Shown in pieces: positions 10,140 through 33,829 of a DNA stretch of 64,000 bases. Every line of letters begins with the position of its first letter. The first letter of the stretch is position 1. The stretch is from positions 329,558 through 393,557 of the forward strand of contig CAVUZH010000024.1 of assembly GCA_963745835.1 (NCBI GenBank), written 5' to 3'. A program made the translations under genes and the position numbers. This DNA comes from an uncultured delta proteobacterium. GTDB taxonomy: Bacteria > Desulfobacterota > Binatia > UBA9968. Under the pieces are notes generated by a model. That model was given only the letters and a program-made list of their open reading frames with translations. It ran no database searches and was not told where the DNA came from.

Positions 10140-10901
10140 CGTCGTCTCCCGAGACGCTGTACTCTGCCGGTTGGCGTGCCGCTTTCCCCAAGGACCTTAT
10201 AGCCGTGCAGAGCGACGTGCAGCTCGCCTTGGAAATCCGAGACCTCGCGCACCTCCAGGCGTATGGTTGACTGCGGCGCAAAAACAATCGGCTTGGCGAA
10301 ATATCGAAAGGGCCGGTCGCCATTGGAGATGCCCAAGCCCGCCGTGCTGAGAATCGGTTCGCTCTGAAATTCGCGGCCAGAGCCTTCGTCAAACAGCGAG
10401 TACAAGAACTGGATGTTTTCCGGCGGGGCCGCAACTACCTGAAAGAGATTTTCCAGGACGCTCGGATCCAACGGAATATTGCCGCCGTTCTGCAGCGCGA
10501 GTTCCACAATATCTGGATTAAGTTTGAAACCGTTTTTGAGCACCGCTTCCGCTCCGGTCTCGCGCTTGAGTAGCCGGGACGTCTCGGGCAGCTTGGCATC
10601 GAGGCCGTCGAGCAGCGGACCGATCACATCGTGCAAGCTGAATCGTTGGCCGGCGTCGTGACAAGGATGATCGGCGCCGAAAGCTTGGGACCGAAAGTCA
10701 GCGCGGCGACCTTCGGCACCAGTCCGTAACCGATGGAAACGGCAACGAAGGTCGCTTCGATACTTACGGTGACGGTACGATTAAGAACGTTGTCGCGCCT
10801 GCCGGTCAGATCGTAGCGGAAGGCGTATTCGAACGGCACCGTGCGCCGCGACGTCAAGGCTCGGTCTTCGGCAAATCCCGACGTGACTGAGCCGGCGTCA
10901 T
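10136..10901 (-). CDS. Single beta-sandwich (jelly-roll-like) structural protein, paralog of 10898..12253, frameshifted
   Basis: ATG 10901 overlaps the upstream TGA. VPFEYAFRYDLTG...FVAVSIGYG...SGREFQSEP...NGDRPF..FAKPIVFAPQSTIRLEV...LHGYKVLG. Confidence 0.7.
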
Positions 10902-12253
10902 CGGCGCATCCCCTGGGAGTTGATTCCCAGCACTTTGAAGCCTTGGAAGACGAAGTAAAGCGTGCCGCGGCCAAAGTGTTCTTGAACAGTAACGCGGATC
11001 GCGGCGCGCGGTCTGAAAATCATGGCCCTCGCGAGCTTTTTAAACGGCCGGTCGCCGTTGGCGATGCCAAGCCCGGCTATATTATGGATCGGCTGGTTCT
11101 GCAGATCGCGCCCAGCGCCGGCGTCATAGATCGATAACGAAACGAGACGTCTTCGGGCCGATTGAGGTTCTCGAAAATTTTGCCGGCGACGCTCGCGCGC
11201 ACCTTATCGCTCAAGCCGCCTCCGCTGTCGAAAGCGATGCGCAGAAAACTCGGACGAATTCGGATCCCGCCGAGCAAAGCGTCTTGCGGCAAGGCGCCGA
11301 GCGGGAGTCGCGAGAGCTTGAACGTTTTTCCGCACCGCCCTCGCTCGGCGGACTGACAATATTGCCAGGCAAGGTAACCGGGATCTCAGCGGCTCCCGTT
11401 TCTAAGCCATAACCGATTGCAGTTGTGACAAATCCGCCTTCAGCGTTGATCGGAACTTCGGTTTCAATCAGGTTTTCGGCGCGGCCGCTGAGTTCCAGGC
11501 GCGCCACGTAATCAAACGGCACGACCCGTTCCGACGGCTGGCCGATGGTCTCGATGCGGCACATGGGGGAACCGTGCAAGCGCCGCAGCAAGGGCTCCGG
11601 ACAGTTGGATGCGCCGAGCAGTTTGTAGCCGTAGAGAACGATAAACAGGGTTCCTTTGACACCTTCGGAACGTTCGACGATATGCAGCCGAACGCTCGAG
11701 CGCGGCATGAAGGTCAATGGCTGTGCAAGCTGACGGAAAGGCCGCTCGCCATTGCTTTTTCCGAAGGAAGCGAGATTGTGGTGGGCTCGTCTTGCAGTTC
11801 GCGCCCGCTGGCGCTGTCGACGAGGCTGAAGAGAAAAGAAATATCTTCAGGAGGTTTTAGCCGTTCGAGGATCCCGGCGTCGAACTGAGGCGCTAACTGT
11901 TGATCGAATGCGACCGGGCGCAATCGCGGACTCAGCCGGAAACCAGTAATCAAAGCGTCAACCGGAATTTTCCCGAGCTTGATCTCGTTCGCCGGGAGAG
12001 AGCTCTCGAGGGAGACAGCCAGCGATCGGACGCGCTCCTCTTGCAACCCGTAGCCGATGCCGGTGGCGACAAAGACGCCGTCGCTGCTGATGTTGATCAC
12101 ATCCTGAACGATGTTGCCTGGAATGCCTTTGAGCTGAAAACTTGCCGCATAGTCGTACGGGATCACGGCCCCCGGAACTGCCTGCGGCGCTGTCCCGCCG
12201 CGCCGGACCGGCGGAAACCTGCGGGTGTATGGACGTGTTTGAGTCGATATCAT
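10898..12253 (-). CDS. Two-domain tandem beta-sandwich (jelly-roll-like) structural protein, frameshifted
   Basis: Two copies of the module P[YF]DY.A...L.G...N...FV.T.IGYGL...PED.SF....D...GR.LQ..P...G.RPF..LA....F.PR...R...G[YF]K.LG. They are fused in frame within ORF 11211..11717. Confidence 0.7.
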
Positions 12254-12384: not shown

Positions 12385-13407
12385 TTACTGCACGTCTCTG
12401 GTCATGTAGCCGTCCAACACGACCCAGATGTAGAGCGGGCCGTAGATCCTCTGCAGCTCTTTCAACACATCGGCATCCGGCACTTCGATTTCGACCCGGA
12501 AGTTCTGCTGTTTGTCGATGAATACCGGCTCAGCGAAACGGAACGTGGCGGTCGGCGAGGGTTCGCCATGAGTTGTAAACGCCGCCGTCTCCGAATACGG
12601 GCCGGCGCCCGCGGGGAAAAACCACGTGGGCATCTGAATCATGATCTTTTCGCCGACATAAAGCGTCGTAACCGTGTTGTAGATGAACTTGCCGATGAGC
12701 GTTCCGGCGCCGTTGTTCGGGTGAATCTGTGCCTTTGGCGGCCGTTTGCTGTCGGGGCGCACCTTCTTGATGATCGCTTCGATATCGGAAACATGCAGCC
12801 AGATCACGCCTTGCATATTGACGATATCTTCGCCGCCGATGGTTTTGTCCGGCTCCGAATGGAAGAACGTAAACGACTCTTCGTCCGCGAACAGCGGCGC
12901 ATACCCGTCTCGGTCGGCACGCGCTTCAGTCAACAGCTCCATGAGCGGGCCCAAGCCGATCTTGAAGTTGGCGAGAATCGGCTCGGCGTTACTGGGCAGA
13001 GTCGTATCGATGAGCGCTGGAATCGTCGAGTCGATGATTTTGTTGTTGTCATCGGCAATCACGATGGCCGGATTGCCGGCGTCCCGCGCCACGAAGTAAA
13101 AAACGTTCTCGTCTAGATCTTCGACCGGATACTCTTTGTCTTCCACCGTGATGTCGTCGGGGAATTCCGGCGGCAAATCGCTGATCACCACCCGCATCGC
13201 TCGCGCCTCGAACGTATTGTAGTGCGGCAAAAGCGAGGCCGACTGCAGGTTGGTTTCCAATTTGGTCTTGTTCTGCACATTGACGAAGAATCGCAGGACT
13301 CCCGTACTTTCTGCGTCTCGCAGTTGTTTCTCCGGTTCCACGGTGAGCGAGTCATAGATGGGCAGATGGACTTTTTCTCTTACGCCTTGTACGACAGCCA
13401 TGGTCAT
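12385..13407 (-). CDS. Putative major shell/capsid protein (jelly-roll-like with large acidic insertion)
   Basis: Intact 340 aa ORF with AAAGGAGG RBS, flanked by stem-loops. Shares strand motifs with the downstream paralogs (FEARAMRV; FAEPVFIDKQQNFRVEI; VVLDGY). Fold is inferred. Confidence 0.55.
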   Translation of the reverse strand: MTMAVVQGVREKVHLPIYDSLTVEPEKQLRDAESTGVLRFFVNVQNKTKLETNLQSASLLPHYNTFEARAMRVVISDLPPEFPDDITVEDKEYPVEDLDENVFYFVARDAGNPAIVIADDNNKIIDSTIPALIDTTLPSNAEPILANFKIGLGPLMELLTEARADRDGYAPLFADEESFTFFHSEPDKTIGGEDIVNMQGVIWLHVSDIEAIIKKVRPDSKRPPKAQIHPNNGAGTLIGKFIYNTVTTLYVGEKIMIQMPTWFFPAGAGPYSETAAFTTHGEPSPTATFRFAEPVFIDKQQNFRVEIEVPDADVLKELQRIYGPLYIWVVLDGYMTRDVQ

Positions 13408-13462: not shown

Positions 13463-14162
13463 TCACCACAGGGGCTTGAACGTCTCCGGTATCGAAGTTG
13501 CGGTTCCCGGTTGCGCCGTGAACCCGTTGCAGCTGGCGTTCACGGTCGCGGGTTGAACGTAGCCCTCGAGCGGCTCCGCCTCGCCGAATCCGCTGACGTT
13601 GGTCGGAAGCGGGCAACCGGCATTGAACGCCGGCTCCATCTCGCGCACGTATCCATCCATCTCGGGCTCGCCGTAGATCTCCGGCGATTCACCGTAGTAC
13701 CCGTACGGTTCAGTCTCACCGTAGGGCATCTCTTCGGAGAGATAGGGCTCCTCTCCGTAGTAGCCGACCGGCTCGTACTGGCCGTACATCTCCGGTTCCC
13801 CGTACGGCTCCGGCGCCTGCGCATAGTAGCCATACGGATCAATCTCTCCGTAGGGCATCTCTTCGGACAGATAAGGTTCTTCGGCGTAATAACCTATCGG
13901 CTCGTATTGGCCGTAAACATCCGGCTCGCCCCAGCCGTACATTTCAGGCGGCTGGGCGTAATATCCGTAAGAATCGACCTGGCCATAGCCGTAGCCCTGA
14001 GAGAGATACGGATCCTCGGCGTAATAGCCATAATCCTGCGGCAGCTCGCCGTAATAGCCCATGTCGGGCTGCTGAGCGTAGTGAAATCTCATTGTTCTTC
14101 CTCCATAGTTTTCGCTCGGGATTAACAATCATGACTTCGTCAAATCCAAGGTTACGTTTCAT
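13463..14162 (-). CDS. Acidic Tyr/Gly/Glu/Pro tandem-repeat protein (putative scaffold), frameshift near 14118
   Basis: Start MKRNLGFDEVMIVNP (14162) joins ORF 13463..14128. About 39-aa repeats of YGEPEMYGQYEPVGYYGEEPYLSEEMP type. Confidence 0.75.
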
Positions 14163-14196: not shown

Positions 14197-14577
14197 TCAG
14201 CCTTCGATTCCTCGCGCGTGATCCGGTAACGTCCGCCGATGATGTAGAGCTGGGTTCCTTGCGGGATTGCACGCCAGTCGCGCCGGCGTCTCCATAAAAT
14301 GGATGTAAGTCCTGGATTGCTTCGGCGTTTGTTTGTCCGAGCTGTAAATCAGACCACGCAGATAGCCCAGATGCACCAGCACCTCTGGAATCACTCTCCG
14401 GCAAGGCGCGCGAACCACCTGCGCAGGTGCAAAGCAATGGAAACAGGCGAAATTTCTTCTTGAGCTCGCTTGAATGCAGCCTGGAGGCCGCGCTCGCACC
14501 GACCGCGTGCCTGGCGAGATGCGCGAGCGATGACATAACTCACTGAGGTCGTCCTTATCTCTGAGGTGCGTGTTCAC
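14197..14577 (-). CDS. Small hypothetical protein, frameshifted
   Basis: GAGG-preceded GTG at 14577. Stitched: …FHCFAP…VLVHLGYLRGLIYSSDK…TYIHFMETPARLACNP-QGTQLYIIGGRYRIT-RGIEG. Confidence 0.55.
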   Translation of the reverse strand: MNTHLRDKDDLSELCHRSRISPGTRSVRARPPGCIQASSRRNFACFHCFAPAQVVRAPCRRVIPEVLVHLGYLRGLIYSSDKQTPKQSRTYIHFMETPARLACNPARNPALHHRRTLPDHARGIEG

Positions 14578-14587
14578 CGGATATCCT

Positions 14588-15320
14588 CTAACGTCGTCGC
14601 CGCACTCGGACCGGCCTTCTGACGGACATCGCCCACTTCGGGTACAACAGGCCGGCGGCGGAATCATGCGTCGGGTTGCGCGTGCGCAGCGGCGCCCGGA
14701 ACGAGGCCTCCGGGACCGCGCCATGCGAGGCAGCGCATGTAAAGTCGCCGCGGCTGAACTCCAGTGTAAGGATGGGGACGTGGGATCCACCCTGGCGGCA
14801 TGTACGGCCGCATCGGCGGCGCCATCATTGGCATGGGAACCTCGGCGAATTCATCGCCAGCATCCGGTGCATAGACCTGTTGTGCCGCCTGGGCTACAGG
14901 CTGCAACTGTTGGATCGCTCCTGGCAGCGCTTGTTGGTACGCCTGTACCGCCGGCGCAAGTTGCTGCATGACGCCCGGCATAGCGCTTTGAAAAGCCTGC
15001 ACCGCGGGCGTGAATTGTCTGACGACTCCGGGAAGTGCCCGCTGCGCCGCTTGAGCTATCGGGGCAAAGCGTCGAAGCGCGCCCGCTGCTCCTCGAATGA
15101 TCCCCGGCAATGCTCTCGCCGCATGGGGAAGGACTTTCGCGGCAATAGCCGGCAACACCTTGGCCGCGAGCGGCGCCAAAAACGGCAACCCAACGGGATT
15201 GCCAAAACCGTCGTAGACGACTTCACCCATCGGCTCTGGATACTCTCCGTATTGAGAACCATAGATTTGAGCATCCGGAACTTCATGCAGGTATCCCGTT
15301 AACGTGTCTTGGACGAGCAT
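14588..15320 (-). CDS. Amphipathic-helix repeat protein with acidic leader and basic tail (putative membrane-active internal protein)
   Basis: Acidic YGE leader, YDGFG, then GLPFLAPLAAKVLPAIAAKVLP and about four 18-aa Q/A/P repeats. Probable frameshifted tail VRRPVRVRRRR-stop at 14588. Confidence 0.65.
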
Positions 15321-15861
15321 TTCATTCCCTCCTTTTCAATTTCACAAACCCGTTTCCAAAGCGCCGGCGGCGCCCATCCTATCCGTCGTTCACAGTCGCG
15401 TCCACGGCGATCCATCGGCCGCGAACATTCACCTCTGGATAAATGTGCGAGTATGCATGCGGCTTGTTCGGGCGAAAACCGGCCAACACCAGCCTCACCG
15501 GATGACCGGTAGACATGAGCATCGCGCCCAAAAGAATGGTCATATCGTCGCAATCGCCCGCCCGAAGCTCGAGCATGCGACGCGCTGAGTGCAGCAACTC
15601 CACACGGAAGATATCCCTCGTGTAGCGAATATTGCGGCGCACCCAATAGAACAAAGCGCAGACCTCGCCAAACCGGTTTTTTGGACGGATGCCGTACTCG
15701 CGAAAGATTTGAATCGCCTTTTGTCGAACGTAAAAATCTTTGGCTCCCGCGAGAATCATCCGCGCAATAATTTGCGCCGTCACCAGGGTGCCCCCGGTTC
15801 CATTGGGAACGCGATGAATGCGAATGCGAGGCGTCACGAAACGGCTGCATAATTGTATCAT
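15299..15861 (-). CDS. Transglutaminase-like cysteine protease (putative maturation protease)
   Basis: GDCDD (Cys), HIYPEV (His), WIAVDAT (Asp). The C-terminus likely continues by frameshift (…IGWAPPALWKRV…). Confidence 0.85.
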
Positions 15862-16113
15862 TCACACCACACCGAGAATCCGTTGAATGGGAACGATCAG
15901 TTGTTGCTTGATTCCTTCGACCTCAACAACGGCAAAAGCGCCCTGCGAACTGCCGCTGTCTGAAATATCAAGAACCTTCCCTTGCAGAAGATCATCTCCG
16001 TAAACTTCGAGAAGCAGCATTTGAACATCTGGAACGTAAACATCGCGGATTTTGAAATGGACCCAGCGATGCTTTAGTCGAGAAGTCTCGCTCTTGAGTT
16101 GTTCCGCAGCCAC
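15862..16113 (-). CDS. Small beta-barrel (SH3/KOW-like) hypothetical protein, first gene of the operon
   Basis: LQGKVLDISDSG...FAVVEVEG...LIVPIQRI. Start moved to GTG 16113 because the sigma54 promoter lies inside the longer ORF call. Stop abuts the next ATG. Confidence 0.6.
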   Translation of the reverse strand: MAAEQLKSETSRLKHRWVHFKIRDVYVPDVQMLLLEVYGDDLLQGKVLDISDSGSSQGAFAVVEVEGIKQQLIVPIQRILGVV

Positions 16114-16125
16114 ACTGCGCAGTTC

Positions 16126-16141
16126 AGCAAGCGACGTGCCG
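16126..16141 (-). promoter_or_regulatory. sigma54 (-24/-12) promoter
   Basis: Minus strand CGGCAC-GTCGC-TTGCT matches YGGCAC-N5-TTGCW; it faces the operon and lies just downstream of a bEBP gene. Confidence 0.85.
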
Positions 16142-16233
16142 GTTCGGGGCGTGCGTAATAACGAGACGAACCCTAGCAATTTTCGATAGCTGGGCTCTGC
16201 GCAGGTTTACGTCGTTGGAAGCAGCTAAGACGA

Positions 16234-16587: not shown

Positions 16588-18237
16588 CTAGCGGTCAACG
16601 GTAGAGTTCAGGTGGTACTTGCGCAGTTTGTTATAAACGCTGCGCGACGTGATACCAAGAAGGCGTGCGGTTTGGGACTGGTTGCCGCGTGTCTTGCGGA
16701 GCGCTGCCTCAAGGAGAAGCTTTTCACAAGAAGCAAGCGACCCATTGAGCCGCCAGTTGTTCGCATCCAGCAACCTGACAACGGACGAAGTCACCTCGCG
16801 CTGTGGCGACGACGCCAGCGGACGATCATCAACGGATCGCGGCGGCCCGTGAGATTCTTCTCGCAATGCAGGCTGCCAGCGCGATAGTTGTTGCAAAATC
16901 TCCGGCGGCAGATCAGCCAGAGTGAGAGGGGCAATATCGTCCTTTTTAACCAGCGCCTGCCTGACGATATTCTCCAGTTGCCTCACGTTGCCGGGCAGTC
17001 CGGCTTCTGCGAGCGCTTCAATGAACTCGTCTTCGACAGACAGCGGCAGCGCCGGTGCGAGGGCGCGATACTTCTGAAAAAAATAATCAACCAGCGGTCT
17101 AATGTCCCCCGGTCTTTCCCGCAATGACGGAGTATGGATCGACAGTACGTTGAGCCGGTAAAAAAGATCTTCGCGAAAGTTCTTTTCTTTCACCATCTGC
17201 TCGAGAGCCCGGTTGGTTGCGGCAATGACTCTTACATCGACGGACGTTTCGTCGTCCTCGCCAACGCCCAAGACGGTCTTTTCTTGCAGCATGCGCAACA
17301 GCTTGGACTGTAGCCCATCCTCCAGTTCGCCGATTTCGTCAAGAAAGAGAATTCCGCCATGCGCGGAACGAACCAGGCCTTTTCGATCGCGATTCGCACC
17401 CGTGAATGCGCCGCGTATGTGGCCGAATAGTTCACTTTCAGCTAAGCCCGCGCTGATGGCGCCGCAATTGACTGCGACGAAAGGGCCGCTGCGGCGTTTC
17501 GGGTCTAAGGCATGAATAGCATGGGCCAACAGTTCCTTGCCCGTACCAGTCTCACCCGTAAGCAGGATGGGGAGGTCGCTAAGAACACTGACTCGGAGAA
17601 CTGTGCGAAACACCGCCAGCATTGATTGGCTTTCCCCAACAATCCCCGCCTGGATCATATTCTCTTTGATGCATCGCTCATCCTCCTCCCGTCGTGCTTC
17701 GGCCTGAAAGAGCTGAACGAGCAGCTGGAAAAGTTCGGACTCAAAATCTGATCTCGAGCTATCCAACAAATTGGATGCGCCGGCTACAAGGGGCAAGCAG
17801 CGAGTCCGTATCGGCCAATTGTGAGCTCCGTCTGCATAAGCCAATATGCCAAGTCCGGAGCCTTTAAGAGCATGCAGAGCGTCCAGCAGAGATGCGTTTG
17901 GGCCAAGCTCGTCGTCCAATGCGACCAGAAGAACATTGGCGCCAGACGTGGCGCGCGCTCCTCCGACTTCGTTGATATCACTAAGCCACCTAGGGGTAGC
18001 GCCGCACTGCGCGATGATTTGCTCAAGGCGCGAGCGGTTAAGGTCCCCACGATCAAGCAGCATAATCGTAGGGGGTGAACTATGCGTGGGTATTAGGTTG
18101 GAATTTGACCGATAGTCTGCGGGAGAACTTGACAGAGCTTTCGGCTTGGTTGGCTGACTCATCGGCACGCTGGTCATCTTTCGGCGTGTGCGTAACTTCG
18201 AAGCTGTGATCAAAGCTGATCGCATCGGTGTCGACAC
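16588..18237 (-). CDS. sigma54-dependent enhancer-binding activator (AAA+, Fis-type HTH, degenerate receiver-like N-terminus)
   Basis: GETGTGKE, GAFTGA, LFLDEIGE, FREDLFYRL, PGNVRQLEN, GNQSQTARLLGI. True start is uncertain (18162 or 18063 possible). Confidence 0.95.
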   Translation of the reverse strand: MSTPMRSALITASKLRTRRKMTSVPMSQPTKPKALSSSPADYRSNSNLIPTHSSPPTIMLLDRGDLNRSRLEQIIAQCGATPRWLSDINEVGGARATSGANVLLVALDDELGPNASLLDALHALKGSGLGILAYADGAHNWPIRTRCLPLVAGASNLLDSSRSDFESELFQLLVQLFQAEARREEDERCIKENMIQAGIVGESQSMLAVFRTVLRVSVLSDLPILLTGETGTGKELLAHAIHALDPKRRSGPFVAVNCGAISAGLAESELFGHIRGAFTGANRDRKGLVRSAHGGILFLDEIGELEDGLQSKLLRMLQEKTVLGVGEDDETSVDVRVIAATNRALEQMVKEKNFREDLFYRLNVLSIHTPSLRERPGDIRPLVDYFFQKYRALAPALPLSVEDEFIEALAEAGLPGNVRQLENIVRQALVKKDDIAPLTLADLPPEILQQLSRWQPALREESHGPPRSVDDRPLASSPQREVTSSVVRLLDANNWRLNGSLASCEKLLLEAALRKTRGNQSQTARLLGITSRSVYNKLRKYHLNSTVDR

Positions 18238-28679: not shown

Positions 28680-30360
28680 TCATTCGGATCGCGCCCTTTC
28701 CTCTTTCCGCGGATCGGCCGCCCCGCTTAGTGAACCGCGATGCGCGGTGATCGCCTGCACCACCCCGAGCACGCTTCTCTCACGCAGAACGTGCCCGCGC
28801 CGCTCAAGTGATTTTTTCGTCTCGTTGGGAATATCATTCTCGACGTTTAACTGATCCGGCAGCCATTGATGATGCACGCGCGGGGCTTCCACCGCTTTCC
28901 TCACCGGCATGCGAAAGTCCAGCACATTGAGAATAGTCTGAAGCGTGGCGCTGATGATCCGGGGGCCGCCCGCGGCGCCGACCACGAGTTCCGCCCGGTC
29001 GCCTTGCAGAACGATCGTCGGCGACATGCTGCTCAGCGGCCGCTTTCTAGGTTGGAGGGAATTGGCCTCATTGCCGACCAGACCGTAAACATTGCCGCTC
29101 GAATGGATCGCGAAATCGTCCATCTCATTGTTGAGCACAATACCGGTGGCCGGCACCAGCAGTTTGGAACCGAACCGCGTGTTGACCGAAACCGTGCAAG
29201 CCACAGCGTTGCCGAAACGATCGATCACGCTGAAATGCGGTGGTTCCACCCAGCTCGGACTTAAAATTATCAGGCCGTAATATTTTGGCGGATGGGTTTT
29301 CGCCGCGGAAATACGACTTCGAATCCACGCGCCGTAGTCTTTTGACGTAATTAATGCAATCGGTGCCTTGACGAAATCCGGATCGCCTAAATATTGCGCG
29401 CGATCGGCGAATGCATGTTTCATGGTCTCGGTAATCAGGTGGAGATAGGTTGCCGAGTTGTACGGCAATCCGCTCAGCGGGTAGCCTTCGAGAACTTTGA
29501 GCATTTGCAGAATCGCCACGCCGCCCGAGCTGGGCGGCGGCATGGTAATGACGGTGCGCTGGCGATAGTTGCCGATGAGAGGTTCCCGCCATACTGGCTT
29601 ATAGCTTTTCAGATCGTCGCTGCTTAAAACTCCGCCTTCGCTTCTGATCGTTTCAACGATCGCGTCGGCGACCCAGCCTTGATAGAAAGCGTTGGCACCT
29701 TGAGAAGCGATCGCCTTCAAGGTTTCAGCCAATTGCGGCTGGCGAATCACGTCGCCTTCGTTTGGCACCTCATGGTTCGGCATATAGATCCGTCCGAGCG
29801 CGGAGAACTTCTTGATCGATTCCTGCTGACGATCGATCGCGTAACGCAGTGTCGAGTCCAGGGGAAAGCCGTCGGCGGCGAGCGCGATCGCCGGCGCGAC
29901 AAGAACCTGCAGCGGCATGCTCCCGAAGCGCTTGTGCGCCTCGGTTAAACCGGCGACTTCGCCGGGTACTGCTACCGCCAAAGCTCCGGTCAGGCTTAAC
30001 GACGACACCGGCTTGCCGTCCTTCATGTATGTTCCTTGCGCGACCCTTCCGGTGCGGTTTCGCGAAAATCTAACGCATGCGCACGCCGGTCCTTTGCTTG
30101 ATAGATAACCATGAAGCCGCCGCCGCCGATTCCTGATGAAGCTTGATCCACCACAGCAAGCGCGAATGCCGTCGCAATCGCGGCGTCGACCGCATTGCCG
30201 CCACGATCGAGCATTTCCATCCCGATTTCGTCGCCAATGGGCTATCCGACACCACCAAGCCGCTAGCGGCGCGCTGCGTGCGCGCTAACGACGGTTCAGT
30301 AAAAATGTTGAACAGGAAGAAAAAAACGCAGATGAAGGATCGGTGAATCAGAACGCGCAT
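28680..30360 (-). CDS. ggt: Gamma-glutamyltransferase, frameshifted
   Basis: [51 protein letters not shown]; signal-like N-terminus. Confidence 0.93.
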
Positions 30361-30551: not shown

Positions 30552-33500
30552 ATGCAGACCATTCTCGGTCCCTTCCATCCACATCTGGAGAACGCGCTAG
30601 TCGAGGAGATTTGTAAATACAAAAATGCCGACCTCATCTGCCCGCTGCTGATTTTAGTTCCTTCTGATGCCCTACGGCGCCGTTTGAAAGTTCTGCTTTC
30701 GCGGGAGCGCAGTCTATCTTTCCTAAATCTGCAACTGCTGACGTTTTATCAATTGTCGGCGAAGCTGTGCGCTGAAGCGGAGGGACTCAGTCCGCCGATC
30801 CTGCGTGAAGAGCTCTTTCTCGAAGAGGCGTTGCGCCAGATCATCCGCACGCGGCAGCCGGGCACGGAACCCTTCAGCGGTATCGAGGAACGCGCCGGCG
30901 GGTGCGCCGCGCTCTGGCAAAGCCTCAGAGATCTACGGGACGGAATGGTGCAACCGACTGTCGCGGAGGAAGCGCTGCGCGAAGGTCACTTCGATTCGAG
31001 AACACAGGAAAGGACAGCCAATCTCTTGAACCTGCTTCGGAGTTTTCTTAGTTTCTGTCACGAGCGCGACATCCGAGATTACTCCACCCTCGACAAGTTC
31101 GCCCTCGCACAGGCACCGTCATCGGTTTTCCTGGGGCAATTCGCGCAGGTTTTCTATTACGGCTTCTACGATTTAACCCAAATTCAGGTGGATCTTTTCC
31201 ATGCCGTCGCGCAAACCTACCCAACGACTCTGTTCTTCCCTCTGTTAAACACTCAGCCGGTCCATGAAGGCTGGCAATTCGCGGCGCGCTTTTATCACGG
31301 CTACGTACAGGGCCGGGCCGGTACCGAGGCGACAAACAATCTGGTGATCGAATCCGCATCACGGAGCTGAGTTGCCTCAAAGTTTCGGTATTTTTGATCA
31401 ACACCCTCTAAGGCATTACCAATCGATGCCTGCCAGTTGGCGGTGCCGGATCTTTAATACTTTCGGCATTCACGACGAGATCAGCGCGGTGGCAAAGCAA
31501 ATCCTGCTTCTGACCGGCGAGGACAACATGGCCTTCGATCAGATAGGCGTGGTCGCGCGCACTCTCGATGATTATGGCGCCACCATCAAAGAGGTCTTTG
31601 CCCAACATAAGATCCCGATCAGCGGCTCCATCGAGGAACCCGTGGTGCAGTTTCCTTTGACCAAGGCTGCCATCCTCTTGATGAACCTTGCGGCGCAAAA
31701 CTACCCGCGCTCGCACGTGATCGATCTGTTGTCGTCTGCCTATTTTCGACTGAACGGGTCGGCAAAAGAGCCAAGCGAGCTTCGTACCGATCTATGGGAT
31801 TTGGCCAGCCGGGAGCTGGCGATCTGCAAAGGAATCGAGGAGTGGCAAAGAATCGACCGGTACACCTCCCAAGGTATGAAGTTGTCCCGAGTATCGGATG
31901 ACGATGACCGGCGCTTTATCGAGATTCCAGCAGCGCAGCTGCGCACTCTGGCAACTATTTTAAAAAGACTCCATAGCCATTTATCCCGGTTACCGCAGCA
32001 CGCCTCTTGGAGTGAATATGCCGATTCATGGAAGAAATTGTTCGCGGAATATCTCGGCATCGAGCCTGAACCGAGCGCCGACTTCAACGCCGCTGATAGA
32101 TTGATCTGTAAGCAAATCATCGAGATTCTCGATGAAATCGCTGGTCTTGACGCGGTTCAGGACGATGTTCCGCTAGGCGACTTTACCGAGAGTTTTGCGC
32201 GCTGGCTCGCCCGCAGCACCATCGTCGAAAGCGATAAGAATATAGGTGGCGTCACCGTGTCGAGCGCCAGCGCCGCTCGCGGGATTAGATTTCGCGCGCT
32301 ATTCATCGTCGGCATGAACGAAGGCGTTTTCCCACGCACGATTCGTGAAGACGCGTTTCTGCGCGATCGCGATCGCGAGGTGCTGGAGCGCGATTTCGGC
32401 TACAAAGTGAGTCAGAAGCTCGCCGCTTTCGATGAAGAGAAGCTGGTTTTTACCCTGCTGGCAAACTCGGCCAGCGAGCGGCTCTATTGTTCGTTTCAGC
32501 GCTCCGATGAAAGCGGCAGAGCGTTAGCGCCGTCATGGTATCTCGACGAGCTCAAACGCGCATTTTCAGGCGGAAAGCAAAAATATGTTGCCGAAGATAC
32601 GATTCCGCGCAGCGCCATCGACAAAGCGATTTGTCATCCTTTCGATCGCGAAGAATTGCTCCTCCCGTCCGAGTTAGCTATTCGCCTCAACCTCACAGGC
32701 AGAGACTCAAAATCCTTGATCGAAGCGGCCGATCTTTCGCCCAATCTATACAAGCAAGGCCTTGAAAACATACGACGGATCGATCTCAGCACCGAGCGGG
32801 TCGGTATGTTCGACGGCATGATCCAAGCACCGGCTAAACACTGGCTGCGCTTTACACAGCACGGCCTCTCGCCCACCGCATTGGAACTTTACGCACGCTG
32901 CCCATTTCAGTACTTCGCGCGCCAGATGCTTGGACTCGAACAGTTGGAAATACCTGAAGAAGTGATCGAGCCATCGGTAGCGGAAGCCGGCAAGCTGGGT
33001 CACGACATTTTAAAAGCTACCTACCAGGTATTAATCGATGCGCGGCTATTTCACAAAAGATTCCTCATTCATCGATGTCGATACATTTTATCGGCGGCGT
33101 CTCAGGATATTTTTACCAAATATGAGAGCCGAGCATCCTGTCGGTTATCCTTTGCTCTGGGCGAGCTTTTGCGAAGGCTTAACTGAGCTTACCCGCGCTA
33201 TTCTGCACGCTGATCTCGAAGATCTCCGCCAATCGGGCTATACGCCCGTGGAATTGGAACTCGGCATAACCGGCCAGCTACCCGGTGACTGGCCCGAGGT
33301 GATTCGAGGCCTTGCAATTCGGGGACGCATCGATCGCCTGGATGTGGATCGGACCCGAAATCGTCTGCGCATTGTCGATTACAAGTTCAAACGTAGCAGC
33401 AGTGCTACTGCCGCGGAAAAGGATCTCGATACAGCCGCGCTGCGCGGCGAGAAGCTACAGCCGCCGATCTATTCGCTGCTCGGCAAGTATTGGGTGGAAG

Positions 33501-33829
33501 TCAACGAAAGAGAGATACGCAAGCCCGAAATCGAGGCCACTTTATTCTATATTGCGCCGGCCTGGAGTGATGGCCCGCTCGTGCGAAAGACATTCAGCGC
33601 GGTGACTCTCGGAAGCAAAGTCGGAGAGGAAATTAAAAAAACCGTCGCTGAGCTTGTTACCGGCATCCGATCCGGCAGATTTTTTATGCAGCCAAGCCAC
33701 TACTGCAAATATTGCGAAGTCGCGGAAATATGCCGCAAAAATCACCCGCCGAGTCTCTGGCGCACGGAAAACGATCCGATCACCGCGCCGCACCGACAGT
33801 TGCGCGAGAAAGAGTCCAAAAAGTGTTGA
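30552..33829 (+). CDS. addB: AddB-like helicase/nuclease subunit with PD-(D/E)XK and Fe-S cysteines, frameshifted
   Basis: ORFs 30552, 31372 and 33038 stitched. CPFQYF, RGRIDRLD, IVDYK, CKYCEVAEIC. Confidence 0.85.

Follow-up and report, generated by a model that had tools for sequence, protein, structure and literature searches.

A predicted sigma-54-controlled bacterial locus with a transglutaminase-like enzyme, candidate jelly-roll proteins and leader-bearing cargo enzymes

In bacteriophage T4 an N-terminal capsid-targeting sequence directs diverse internal proteins into the shell, which has the HK97 fold, and gp21, a serine protease cutting after L/I-x-E, removes this tag and trims the structural proteins. 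Adenain and Ulp1-like cysteine proteases accompany the jelly-roll coats of adenovirus, virophages and Polintons; the catalytic order of adenain is His-Glu/Asp-Cys, its cleavage site is (M/I/L)xGx-G and its substrates include a membrane-lytic precursor. Encapsulins have an HK97-fold shell, metabolic or stress cargo, tags that are usually C-terminal, and no protease. The extracellular contractile injection systems (eCIS) are cytoplasmically assembled, phage-derived apparatuses, and the Bacillus spore-coat Tgl, which is under an alternative sigma factor, is a small stand-alone transglutaminase acting on a self-assembling layer in which Tyr-rich proteins occur together with wall hydrolases. Here we analyse a 64,000-nucleotide stretch of DNA (the window; contig CAVUZH010000024.1, positions 329,558 to 393,557) from an uncultured delta proteobacterium, in which a predicted transglutaminase-core enzyme (15299-15861, minus strand) is encoded in one putative operon with predicted jelly-roll proteins and a variable array of genes that share an N-terminal leader.

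Two bacterial systems are described in PMC3482391: the papain-like cysteine peptidase C39 of bacteriocin ABC exporters, which removes a double-glycine leader, and the packaged polymorphic toxins of the eCIS and MuF type, which form a variable toxin array and have an N-terminal loading region. We fetched 57 loci related to the one in the window from public genomes with an alignment of protein F, the most widespread marker of the system, and the presence of each gene was counted in 58 sources. The conserved order is sigma-54 activator, B, enzyme, D, D2, E, F, three tandem paralogues, X163, K, L and the variable region, and the system occupies about 20 kb; all operon features of the window given below lie on the minus strand. 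We suggest that the enzyme cleaves the leader. This is the best-supported mechanism, it goes beyond the existence and conservation of the leader motif, and we hold it with a probability of roughly 0.4.

The enzyme gene begins with an ATG at 15861 and is read as a 160-aa frame ending at a stop at 15379; read through, it encodes 187 aa, the last 27 codons being frame-shifted. The Pfam Transglut_core profile (PF01841) matches residues 61-155 (E 1.3e-12, 48.4 bits versus a cut-off of 23). The catalytic residues are Cys104 in GDCDD (codon 15550-15552), His139 in SHIY (15445-15447) and Asp154 in VDAT (15400-15402), retained in 50/51, 50/51 and 51/51 orthologous open reading frames (ORFs), respectively; the sole gap comes from a 42-aa fragment where a contig ends. 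Judged by profile and catalytic residues, the enzyme is a stand-alone member of the papain-like transglutaminase-core superfamily, and the original prediction of a transglutaminase-like protein with an intact Cys-His-Asp triad was borne out by the Pfam match and by the conservation of the triad. A search of 5.8 billion proteins returned 1121 candidates, 1084 of them relatives at E<=1e-3; the best 120 of these 1084 are 77-89% identical, mostly 187 aa long, in some cases from other phyla, and all 120 contain PF01841. The enzyme is the most conserved of the core proteins for which identity was measured, F homologues being only about 60% identical. Within its large superfamily the enzyme alone is unremarkable; what is unusual is the system around it.

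The gene was initially placed at 15299-15861, and a frame break there went unnoticed. In a tblastn search with the orthologue from the related locus L011, residues 1-157 aligned to 15861-15391 (frame -2) and residues 161-187 to 15382-15302 (frame -1); the last 27 residues of the homologues (IGWAPPALWKRVCEIEKEGMKCSSKTR) are encoded in the window in a different frame. The span given, 563 nt, is one base short of 188 codons, and the gene as assembled therefore has a 1-nt deletion near 15388, five codons past the catalytic Asp. Further frame switches relative to L011 were detected by tblastn three times in the ORF pair GH and once each in IJ, X163, K and L, with one more at the cargo leader near 2680; together with the enzyme gene this brings the total to at least nine breaks against the intact L011 orthologues over about 9 kb of operon. 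Apart from the enzyme gene, break points lie at about 11780, 11330, 11134, 10640, 9861, 9376 and 7864. This number would fit a copy that is a decaying, non-functional remnant in this genome. Against decay, the comparison with L011 by tblastn gave no in-frame stops or large deletions and a complete gene order. Housekeeping genes of the window appear to be damaged as well: a PDDEXK_1 (AddB-like) nuclease on the plus strand is split between overlapping frames at 31372-33186 and 33038-33829, and the match of a gamma-glutamyltranspeptidase (28680-30026, minus strand) begins at profile position 68 of 512, so that its N-terminus may be missing too. In two of four soil runs (X1 and X2), one contig each has an extra base behind 15387, which turns AAC GAC GGA TAG into AAC CGA CGG ATA GGA TGG (N-R-R-I-G-W), as in the homologues, and restores the reading ...VN-RRIGWAPP; relatives' soil contigs also lack one base at 9376, in protein K. 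These contigs belong to relatives and not to the source sample; the runs matched at most 0.23 of the sampled words, and stretches without cover are uninformative. Because housekeeping genes of the window are broken too and relatives carry the restoring base, an assembly indel in the enzyme gene is more likely than a pseudogene, and we consider decay of the whole copy quite improbable. The breaks outside the operon suggest about 0.3-1 indel errors per kb, and an error rate of this size bears on every interpretation of the window that starts from ORFs.

The leader opens nearly every gene of the variable downstream region in the related loci. Its consensus is M(x)Y[ILVM], followed by 2-12 residues and then (G)LG(Q/E)(P/A), as in MYIRIPEGLGQTP, MYLRTAEGLGQAP, MVYITTFAGLGQPG and MSYIQLGEPAQ; the window leaders MYIHLNGLGQPRG (at 1317) and MYIRTHEGLGES (at about 2680) contain the strings LNGLG and HEGLG that had been noticed earlier. 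With a strict pattern (M.?Y[ILMV].{1,12}[LFW]G[QE] close to the ORF start) we detected the leader in 35/539 downstream same-strand ORFs of the loci, compared with 0/687 on the opposite strand, 0/532 upstream and 3/16561 among whole-genome ORFs. We consider the leader a real signal, conserved across loci, on the strength of this enrichment. Elsewhere in the 7.28-Mb genome only two ORFs fit the strict pattern, at G000 C3:1001571 (plus strand, MYLMRLGE...) and C22:278022 (minus strand, MVYIFLGE...); they are probably chance matches, and could be orphan cargo. Among 95 cargo leaders, a hydrophobic-Gly anchor is present in 71, with Leu as the hydrophobic residue in 58 and a preceding Gly in 22. The anchor is followed by Gln in 24, Glu in 14 and another residue in 33 of the 71, and the next position holds Pro in 16 and Ala in 13. 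Whether or not cleavage holds, the leader offers a strong and testable marker with which genomes can be searched for the cargo of this system.

The leader motif had first been seen as the string xxG[L/F/W]G, recurring mostly at leader/domain junctions, and all nine strings then listed are indeed present in the window. G[LFW]G occurs 13 times in the 5014 aa of the 22 operon translations, and it would be possible to regard these strings as an effect of chance or composition, since the pattern was picked post hoc and 6 of the 13 window sites are without conservation in orthologues. Within-protein shuffling gave an expectation of 3.8 +/- 1.9, and none of 2000 shuffles reached 13. Genome-wide, the observed/expected ratio of G[LFW]G is 1.03 (4174 long ORFs), which corresponds to about 3.9 expected in the operon and a Poisson P of 2.3e-4, a value that must count as too favourable, since the sequence had been read before the pattern was picked. 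In other genomes the strict leader pattern was found in 35/539 downstream ORFs against 0/1219 control ORFs. A chance origin, already largely refuted, is extremely improbable.

Whether the motif is conserved in homologous loci depends on the site. Conservation is strong for YDG[LF]G of protein D (29/31), [IT]AGLG of the paralogue loop (59/82) and TAGLG of cargo O (3/3), partial for VSGFG of protein E (17/39) and for K (7/33, or 25/33 as GxG), and poor for MYGWG of E (3/36), for F (1/34), for the enhancer-binding protein (EBP, 1/28), for cargo P (0/6) and for the two sites of cargo N (1/7 each). The recurrence of a Gly motif at leaders and junctions therefore stands, and is conserved across phyla; the form xxG[L/F/W]G is only a partial view of it, because the conserved core is L-G followed by Q/E and P/A, and the first Gly is present in only 22 of the 71 leaders.

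Related motifs stand at three other places. Protein D (14664-15320), whose start overlaps the 3' end of the enzyme gene by 22 nt, as it also does in L011, has a conserved N-terminal module (MLVQDTLTG.HEVPD), the motif VYDG[LF]GNPVG (YDGFG at 15201-15215 in the window) and then a hydrophobic stretch rich in Ala, Pro, Gly and Leu. Residues D37, G38, G40 and G44 (D-G-x-G-x-x-x-G) are invariant in 19/19 sequences, and 18/22 D orthologues end in an Arg run, with at least three R/K in the last 10 residues. In the paralogues, the loop N[IL]AGLG...G[DE]RPFR has invariant A189, L191, G192, G196, R198, P199, F200 and R201, and positions 187-196 are the only internal stretch with pLDDT below 50 in the model of the L011 orthologue (mean 80.4). 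The third place is found in a second type of locus, type 2, which has a shorter F, a single paralogue and an enzyme with a C-terminal extension of about 175 aa. The tail of the type-2 enzyme starts about 20 residues past the catalytic Asp with M-M-x-E-D-x-E-L-Q-G-[ILM]-G in 8/14 loci; variants are DDGLGQS in a Mycobacterium sp. and EEPLGQL in Streptomyces kanamyceticus, and the type-2 enzyme P0241 is additionally fused to D2. A leader-type motif directly after the enzyme domain would look like the layout of a self-processing protease. The prediction of a complex between the enzyme and the first 80 residues of D (31-row and 19-row alignments) scored 0.00 against a mark of 0.32, which gives no answer and is no evidence either way.

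A different activity, cross-linking of Gln-rich partners, had been offered as an alternative in the original prediction. The enzyme would then be a true transglutaminase that joins the Gln of the leader (L-G-Q), or another Gln, to Lys residues of the jelly-roll proteins, fixing cargo or hardening the assembly, in the way that Tgl does for the Bacillus spore coat. The transglutaminase-core fold fits this idea, the Tyr-rich acidic matrix protein and the wall hydrolases recall coat assembly, and Gln is the commonest residue after hydrophobic-Gly (24/71, and 25/80 in a second count, against a background of 4%). The remaining leaders have Glu (14/71) or another residue (33/71) at this position, and D has Asn; this counts against cross-linking because only Gln can serve as acyl donor. 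Nor is the high Gln content of D conserved (9.6% in the window versus a median of 3.8% in 23 orthologues), and Lys is rare in D (0-2.7%). Cross-linking of such partners is thus a weak alternative, and we find it improbable.

The folds of the candidate partners were predicted from models. Protein F (340 aa; 12385-13407) gave an AF2 model with pLDDT 69.7, showing a jelly-roll core into which a domain is inserted at residues 85-215, and its best match (VIA search) is the D13-type scaffold of Orf virus, a poxvirus (Z 8.6, rmsd 4.1, 140 residues aligned); further matches are the PBCV-1 and PRD1 coat proteins as well as nucleoplasmin and sugar-binding modules. The model of the L011 paralogue matched best the coat of satellite panicum mosaic virus (Z 9.1, rmsd 3.8, 123 aligned), followed by the peptidylglycine monooxygenase PHM (Z 9.0), SPV1 (8.7) and P23-77 VP17 (8.0). 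The match is one of fold level only, because cellular jelly rolls score the same. The models support a jelly-roll beta-sandwich fold for F and the paralogues, which makes them candidate shell proteins by fold only. The ESM Atlas clusters nearest to the paralogue are mostly viral hypothetical proteins. A Foldseek search of F against the PDB gave no match at E<=0.001, and five BFVD matches of the paralogue at E<=0.001 have TM scores of only 0.2-0.4 and were used as 'jelly-roll-like' at most. No HK97-fold entry was present among the 50 structure matches listed for the F or paralogue model, an absence from a fold list that does not exclude a fold. HHalign of F versus the paralogues (E 0.0067, 39 C-terminal columns, probability 5.7%) is only suggestive of a distant paralogy; for X163 versus the paralogues the E value was 0.37.

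Taken together, these data suggest the following scheme. The earlier observation is confirmed in part, and its reading as an enzyme that trims leaders after assembly is supported in part: the context would suit a protease that processes leader and junction motifs of a coat-like assembly. The jelly-roll proteins would assemble in the cytoplasm, possibly aided by the acidic protein E and the Arg tails, and the leader would recruit cargo to this assembly. The enzyme would be the processing protease of the system, with the hydrophobic-Gly motif as its recognition site and with cuts placed at this motif or beside it, in the manner of the T4 capsid-targeting sequence with gp21 and of adenain. Candidate targets would be the leaders, D with its YDG[LF]GNP junction, possibly the disordered AGLG loop of the paralogues and, in fused forms, the enzyme's own linker. 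Assembly, recruitment and every cleavage event are steps that we infer from the observed family, triad, gene order, leader enrichment, predicted folds and sigma-54 elements. Cutting after hydrophobic-Gly or Gly-Gly is familiar from other papain-like enzymes, for instance Atg4, deubiquitinases and C39. The conserved core has two enzyme-like proteins, the transglutaminase-core protein and K. Protein K, queried with the present sequence, is found in type-1 loci and in none of the type-2 loci listed except L059; leaders are present in both types, and within the loci listed the enzyme is the only candidate enzyme common to both.

Several points weigh against leader cleavage. Cleavage, binding and particles were seen in no result of the analysis, and according to PMC3482391 a transglutaminase core may belong to a peptidase, a cross-linking enzyme or an inactive binding protein. 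Of the 95 leader-type ORFs, 24 are without hydrophobic-Gly within 22 residues; several of the motif sites listed earlier are lineage-specific. The enzyme and at least eight other places of the operon are out of frame in the window. The Z scores of 8-9 obtained for the jelly rolls are at a level that the tool calls common, and the non-viral PHM, nucleoplasmin and GOLD score alike. Finally, genome G061 encodes an F homologue with all conserved motifs (L017:10001-10987) whose neighbours are housekeeping genes; within 10 kb there is no further gene of the system, and a search of that genome with P0155 did not detect the enzyme.

The last case also fits a leader that serves for recruitment or export only, the Gly motifs being uncut turns or binding epitopes and the enzyme having another function within the system, in the processing of a single partner such as D, in peptide binding or at the cell wall. 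The sequence after the leaders is slightly Pro-rich (10% vs 7.7%) and resembles encapsulin-type targeting peptides, which are not removed, and the tight overlap of the D and enzyme genes together with the fusions would suit a single dedicated partner. A tag of this kind leaves unexplained the motif at the enzyme's own junction in the fused forms and in the disordered, invariant loop of the paralogues, and we regard it as possible though rather doubtful. If leader cleavage is true, a substrate code would be defined for the first time for a transglutaminase-like protease of bacteria, and the leader would be a portable loading tag of about 15 residues.

The cargo itself is encoded in a variable array of at least seven leader genes (1-7120) that runs off the start of the window. 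These are cargo N, OmpA-like (leader MAYVRIPEADSALG at 7090); cargo O, Aspzincin_M35 (leader MVYPRSLTGARYGEP at 5959); cargo P, zincin-like (leader MAYQMIGDAP at 4985); a gene with the leader MYIYDREP at 4041; the frameshifted gene near 2680 already mentioned; cargo S, OmpA-like (leader MYIHLNGLGQP at 1317); and a gene with the leader MYIMTTLAEP at 523. Pfam matches in the 95 leader ORFs are OmpA (9), Aspzincin_M35 (6), Trypsin_2 (5), Extensin-like_C (3), Beta-lactamase2 (3), VanY (2) and PG_binding_1 (2), with single cases of Lipase_3, PLD, PLA2, Amidase_6, M15_4, M74 and DUF2272. Judged by these families, the cargo is a repertoire of putative envelope-attacking enzymes that would degrade wall, lipid and protein. 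One cargo family (window 6119-7120 and its homologues) has a Cys-rich segment, CG..C.C..CR, after the leader; next come a second motif, G[LF][GSE]E[WRY]Y, in which the string TSGLG of the earlier list falls, and a run of acidic residues. A class-I SAM methyltransferase is encoded in or beside the cargo array in 20/58 sources, for example at L011:17373-18236 and, to the left of the window, at C24:326789-327439.

At the other end, the first gene (16588-18237) encodes a sigma-54 enhancer-binding activator of 549 aa (Sigma54_activat E 4.2e-64, with AAA_lid_14 and HTH_8), and an orthologue lies upstream in 36/58 sources. A promoter-like -24/-12 element, CGGCACGTCGCTTGCT (16126-16141), with one mismatch to TGGCAC-N5-TTGCW, lies 265 nt upstream of the enzyme ATG and about 49 nt upstream of the homology-supported part of B. 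An element with at most two mismatches was detected at the matching distance in 20/29 loci versus 0/28 control windows. The pattern is not enriched over the window as a whole (24 matches with at most two mismatches vs 29.5 expected), and for this reason only the position-specific comparison across loci is informative. With its dedicated activator and predicted -24/-12 promoter, the locus is a predicted sigma-54-dependent operon.

The small core proteins have little similarity to described families. Protein B (15862-16179; homology over 15868-16077, tblastn with L011 B, E 6.6e-18) belongs to no known family, is without a Pfam match, has a stop codon that abuts the enzyme ATG and is present in 32/58 sources. 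D2 (14200-14466; tblastn E 9.3e-27), also of no known family and containing ...YIHFMETP.RLAC..., is present in 53/58. Protein E (13463-14128) is acidic, Tyr-rich and disordered, with low-complexity YGYYAEP repeats, and carries MYGWG and VSGFG. Its orthologues have a conserved N-terminus, FDEVMIVNP, absent in the window and probably frameshifted there, and a conserved C-terminus, P[DE]TF[KR]PLW; the net charge is negative in 37/38 orthologues, mostly about -20 to -50, and Tyr content is mostly 11-18%. L011 E lies at L011:9175-9945; type-2 loci encode E as two separate proteins, one of 95 aa ahead of F and one of about 347 aa behind it, and the second of these also has two VDGLGNPIGGFW copies.

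For F, 2545 homologues were found at E<=1e-3, and there was no Pfam domain in the 120 listed. The three tandem jelly-roll paralogues (10136-12253; ORFs G, H, I and J) are split in the window by at least four frame breaks. Each has PFDY...IGYGL...FL[FY]SL.D..SGRE.Q.EP, then the loop described above (TAGLG in J) and a basic C-terminal tail, the tail having at least three R/K in 43/71 paralogue ORFs. Arg-rich tails were seen on D (L011:8201-8752) and the paralogues (L011:10924-13109) and on their orthologues. The Arg tails together with the acidic E suggest charge-driven assembly or nucleic-acid binding.

Downstream of the paralogues, X163 (9679-10093; one frame break, tblastn in two frames, E 1e-45) has an N-terminal C..C and NPWG.G and is present in 47/58 sources. 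Protein K (9142-9661, one frame break near 9376) has the invariant GHH.VGRA.D ... H.DH.H, whose H-x6-D and H-x-H we take to be an LAS-type zinc peptidase signature, one that no tool confirmed. In a sequence-profile search neither X163 nor K matched the PDB, and K is also without a Pfam match. The conserved protein L (about 460 aa; 7655-9041, one frame break near 7864) gave two PDB matches at E of about 0.8 and an ESM Atlas model with pLDDT 0.34, the neighbours of which are meaningless. A coiled-coil protein of 161 aa (7124-7609), with a weak DUF6468 match, has an analogue after L in L011. Altogether, about 10 core proteins matched no Pfam, NCBIfam (window copies only), PHROG or PADLOC family.

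The 57 loci come from Nitrospirota, Acidobacteriota, Verrucomicrobiota, Pseudomonadota, Myxococcota, Planctomycetota, Calditrichota, Gemmatimonadota and Cyanobacteria, and Mycobacterium spp. and Streptomyces kanamyceticus came to light in a further search, for about 10 phyla overall. The system is sporadic across phyla; among 60 related genomes there was only one weak, partial match (E 2.1e-4). The long-tail type-2 enzymes P0273, P0284, P0326 and P0331 are found in isolate genomes of Mycobacterium sp. and Streptomyces kanamyceticus, and therefore cultivable hosts of the system exist. A PADLOC search gave no family at E<=0.01 for 10 L011 core proteins, and a full-text literature search returned no paper that describes either the leader or the pairing of a transglutaminase-like enzyme and jelly-roll proteins. 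The gene system as a whole appears to be undescribed.

An unrecognised integrated virus could also account for some of these genes, the locus being its structural module with jelly-roll coats, a cysteine maturation protease and Arg-rich nucleic-acid-binding tails. The jelly-roll folds, the viral ESM Atlas neighbours of the paralogue, the basic tails and the lysin-like K would agree with such an origin. The collections of viral sequences argue the other way: F has no relatives in 2.9 million IMG/VR contigs, a type-2 F query had no match in phage or plasmid collections, and PHROGs gave no match at E<=0.01 for 10 proteins (nine L011 core proteins and the 347-aa L049 protein). No packaging ATPase, replicase or integrase family was detected in the proteins scanned or among recurring locus genes, and a provirus leaves aside the dedicated sigma-54 activator and promoter at the start and the polymorphic enzyme array at the end. 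We consider a provirus very improbable.

Leader cleavage, combined with the predicted folds and promoter, leads to a broader and more tentative proposal, which we judge on balance doubtful: a new class of cellular virus-coat-like machine, in which a sigma-54-induced particle of several jelly-roll proteins would be loaded, by way of a universal N-terminal tag (MY-hydrophobic...GLGQP), with polymorphic envelope-degrading enzymes and matured by a transglutaminase-fold cysteine protease. As predicted from its genes, the system links coat-like proteins by a single short tag to an exchangeable set of enzymes that attack wall, lipid and protein. Should the cleavage scheme described above hold, it would be a third independent bacterial conversion of a virus-type shell into a cellular device.

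Comparison with the systems introduced above brings out both likenesses and differences. Adenain resembles the present case in having a cysteine enzyme beside predicted jelly-roll proteins; a conserved (G)LG(Q/E)P leader and, in D, a YDG[LF]GNP junction would be candidate sites for a cut of the adenain kind, and the layout of D, a junction plus a hydrophobic stretch, resembles the membrane-lytic precursor. The order Cys-His-Asp on Transglut_core agrees with the earlier statement that the adenovirus protease belongs to a different clan, and the consensus differs from (M/I/L)xGx-G. Membership in the adenain group or clan CE is ruled out by the wrong catalytic order and fold and by the lack of a Pfam match of the enzyme to Peptidase_C5 or C48 at E<=0.1. 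Unlike in the viruses with adenain, no packaging ATPase was found and no double jelly-roll protein was shown.

With C39 the locus shares a papain-like enzyme and an N-terminal Gly-containing leader on many different proteins encoded nearby. The proteins here are enzymes of 100-580 aa and not peptides, and a hydrophobic residue stands between or before the Gly residues. A C39 leader peptidase is ruled out: the enzyme has no Pfam match to Peptidase_C39, and no C39 or ABC-transporter family matched in the window and L011 proteins scanned. The spore-coat Tgl is similar in its small transglutaminase-fold enzyme, Tyr-rich protein, wall hydrolases and alternative sigma factor; there is no sequence match beyond the superfamily, and the only match of the enzyme to the PDB in a sequence search is 3isr (E 0.014).

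The eCIS and MuF toxins likewise have a variable 3' array with peptidoglycan hydrolases, lipases and proteases. Among the scanned proteins there was no match to a MuF or portal family, and a contractile injection system (eCIS or type VI secretion system, T6SS) is ruled out, as no sheath, tube or baseplate family was matched in these proteins (Pfam, NCBIfam and PHROG). Encapsulins share with the locus the combination of virus-fold proteins and short terminal peptides on adjacently encoded cargo, and differ in that several jelly-roll proteins, an N-terminal leader and putative envelope-degrading cargo are present here. T4 is comparable in having a tag and a dedicated protease in the same module, features that are here predicted from genes; it differs from the locus, which has jelly-roll shell candidates, a transglutaminase-core Cys-His-Asp enzyme and the motif (G)LG(Q/E)P, is chromosomal and predicted to be sigma-54-controlled, and was not found in virus collections. 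The system thus shares the logic of adenain, C39, encapsulin and contractile injection systems but, in the scans and fold matches listed, none of their parts and, if the proposed machine is real, it would be a jelly-roll counterpart to the HK97-fold encapsulins and the tail-derived injection systems, delivering or releasing antibacterial enzymes.

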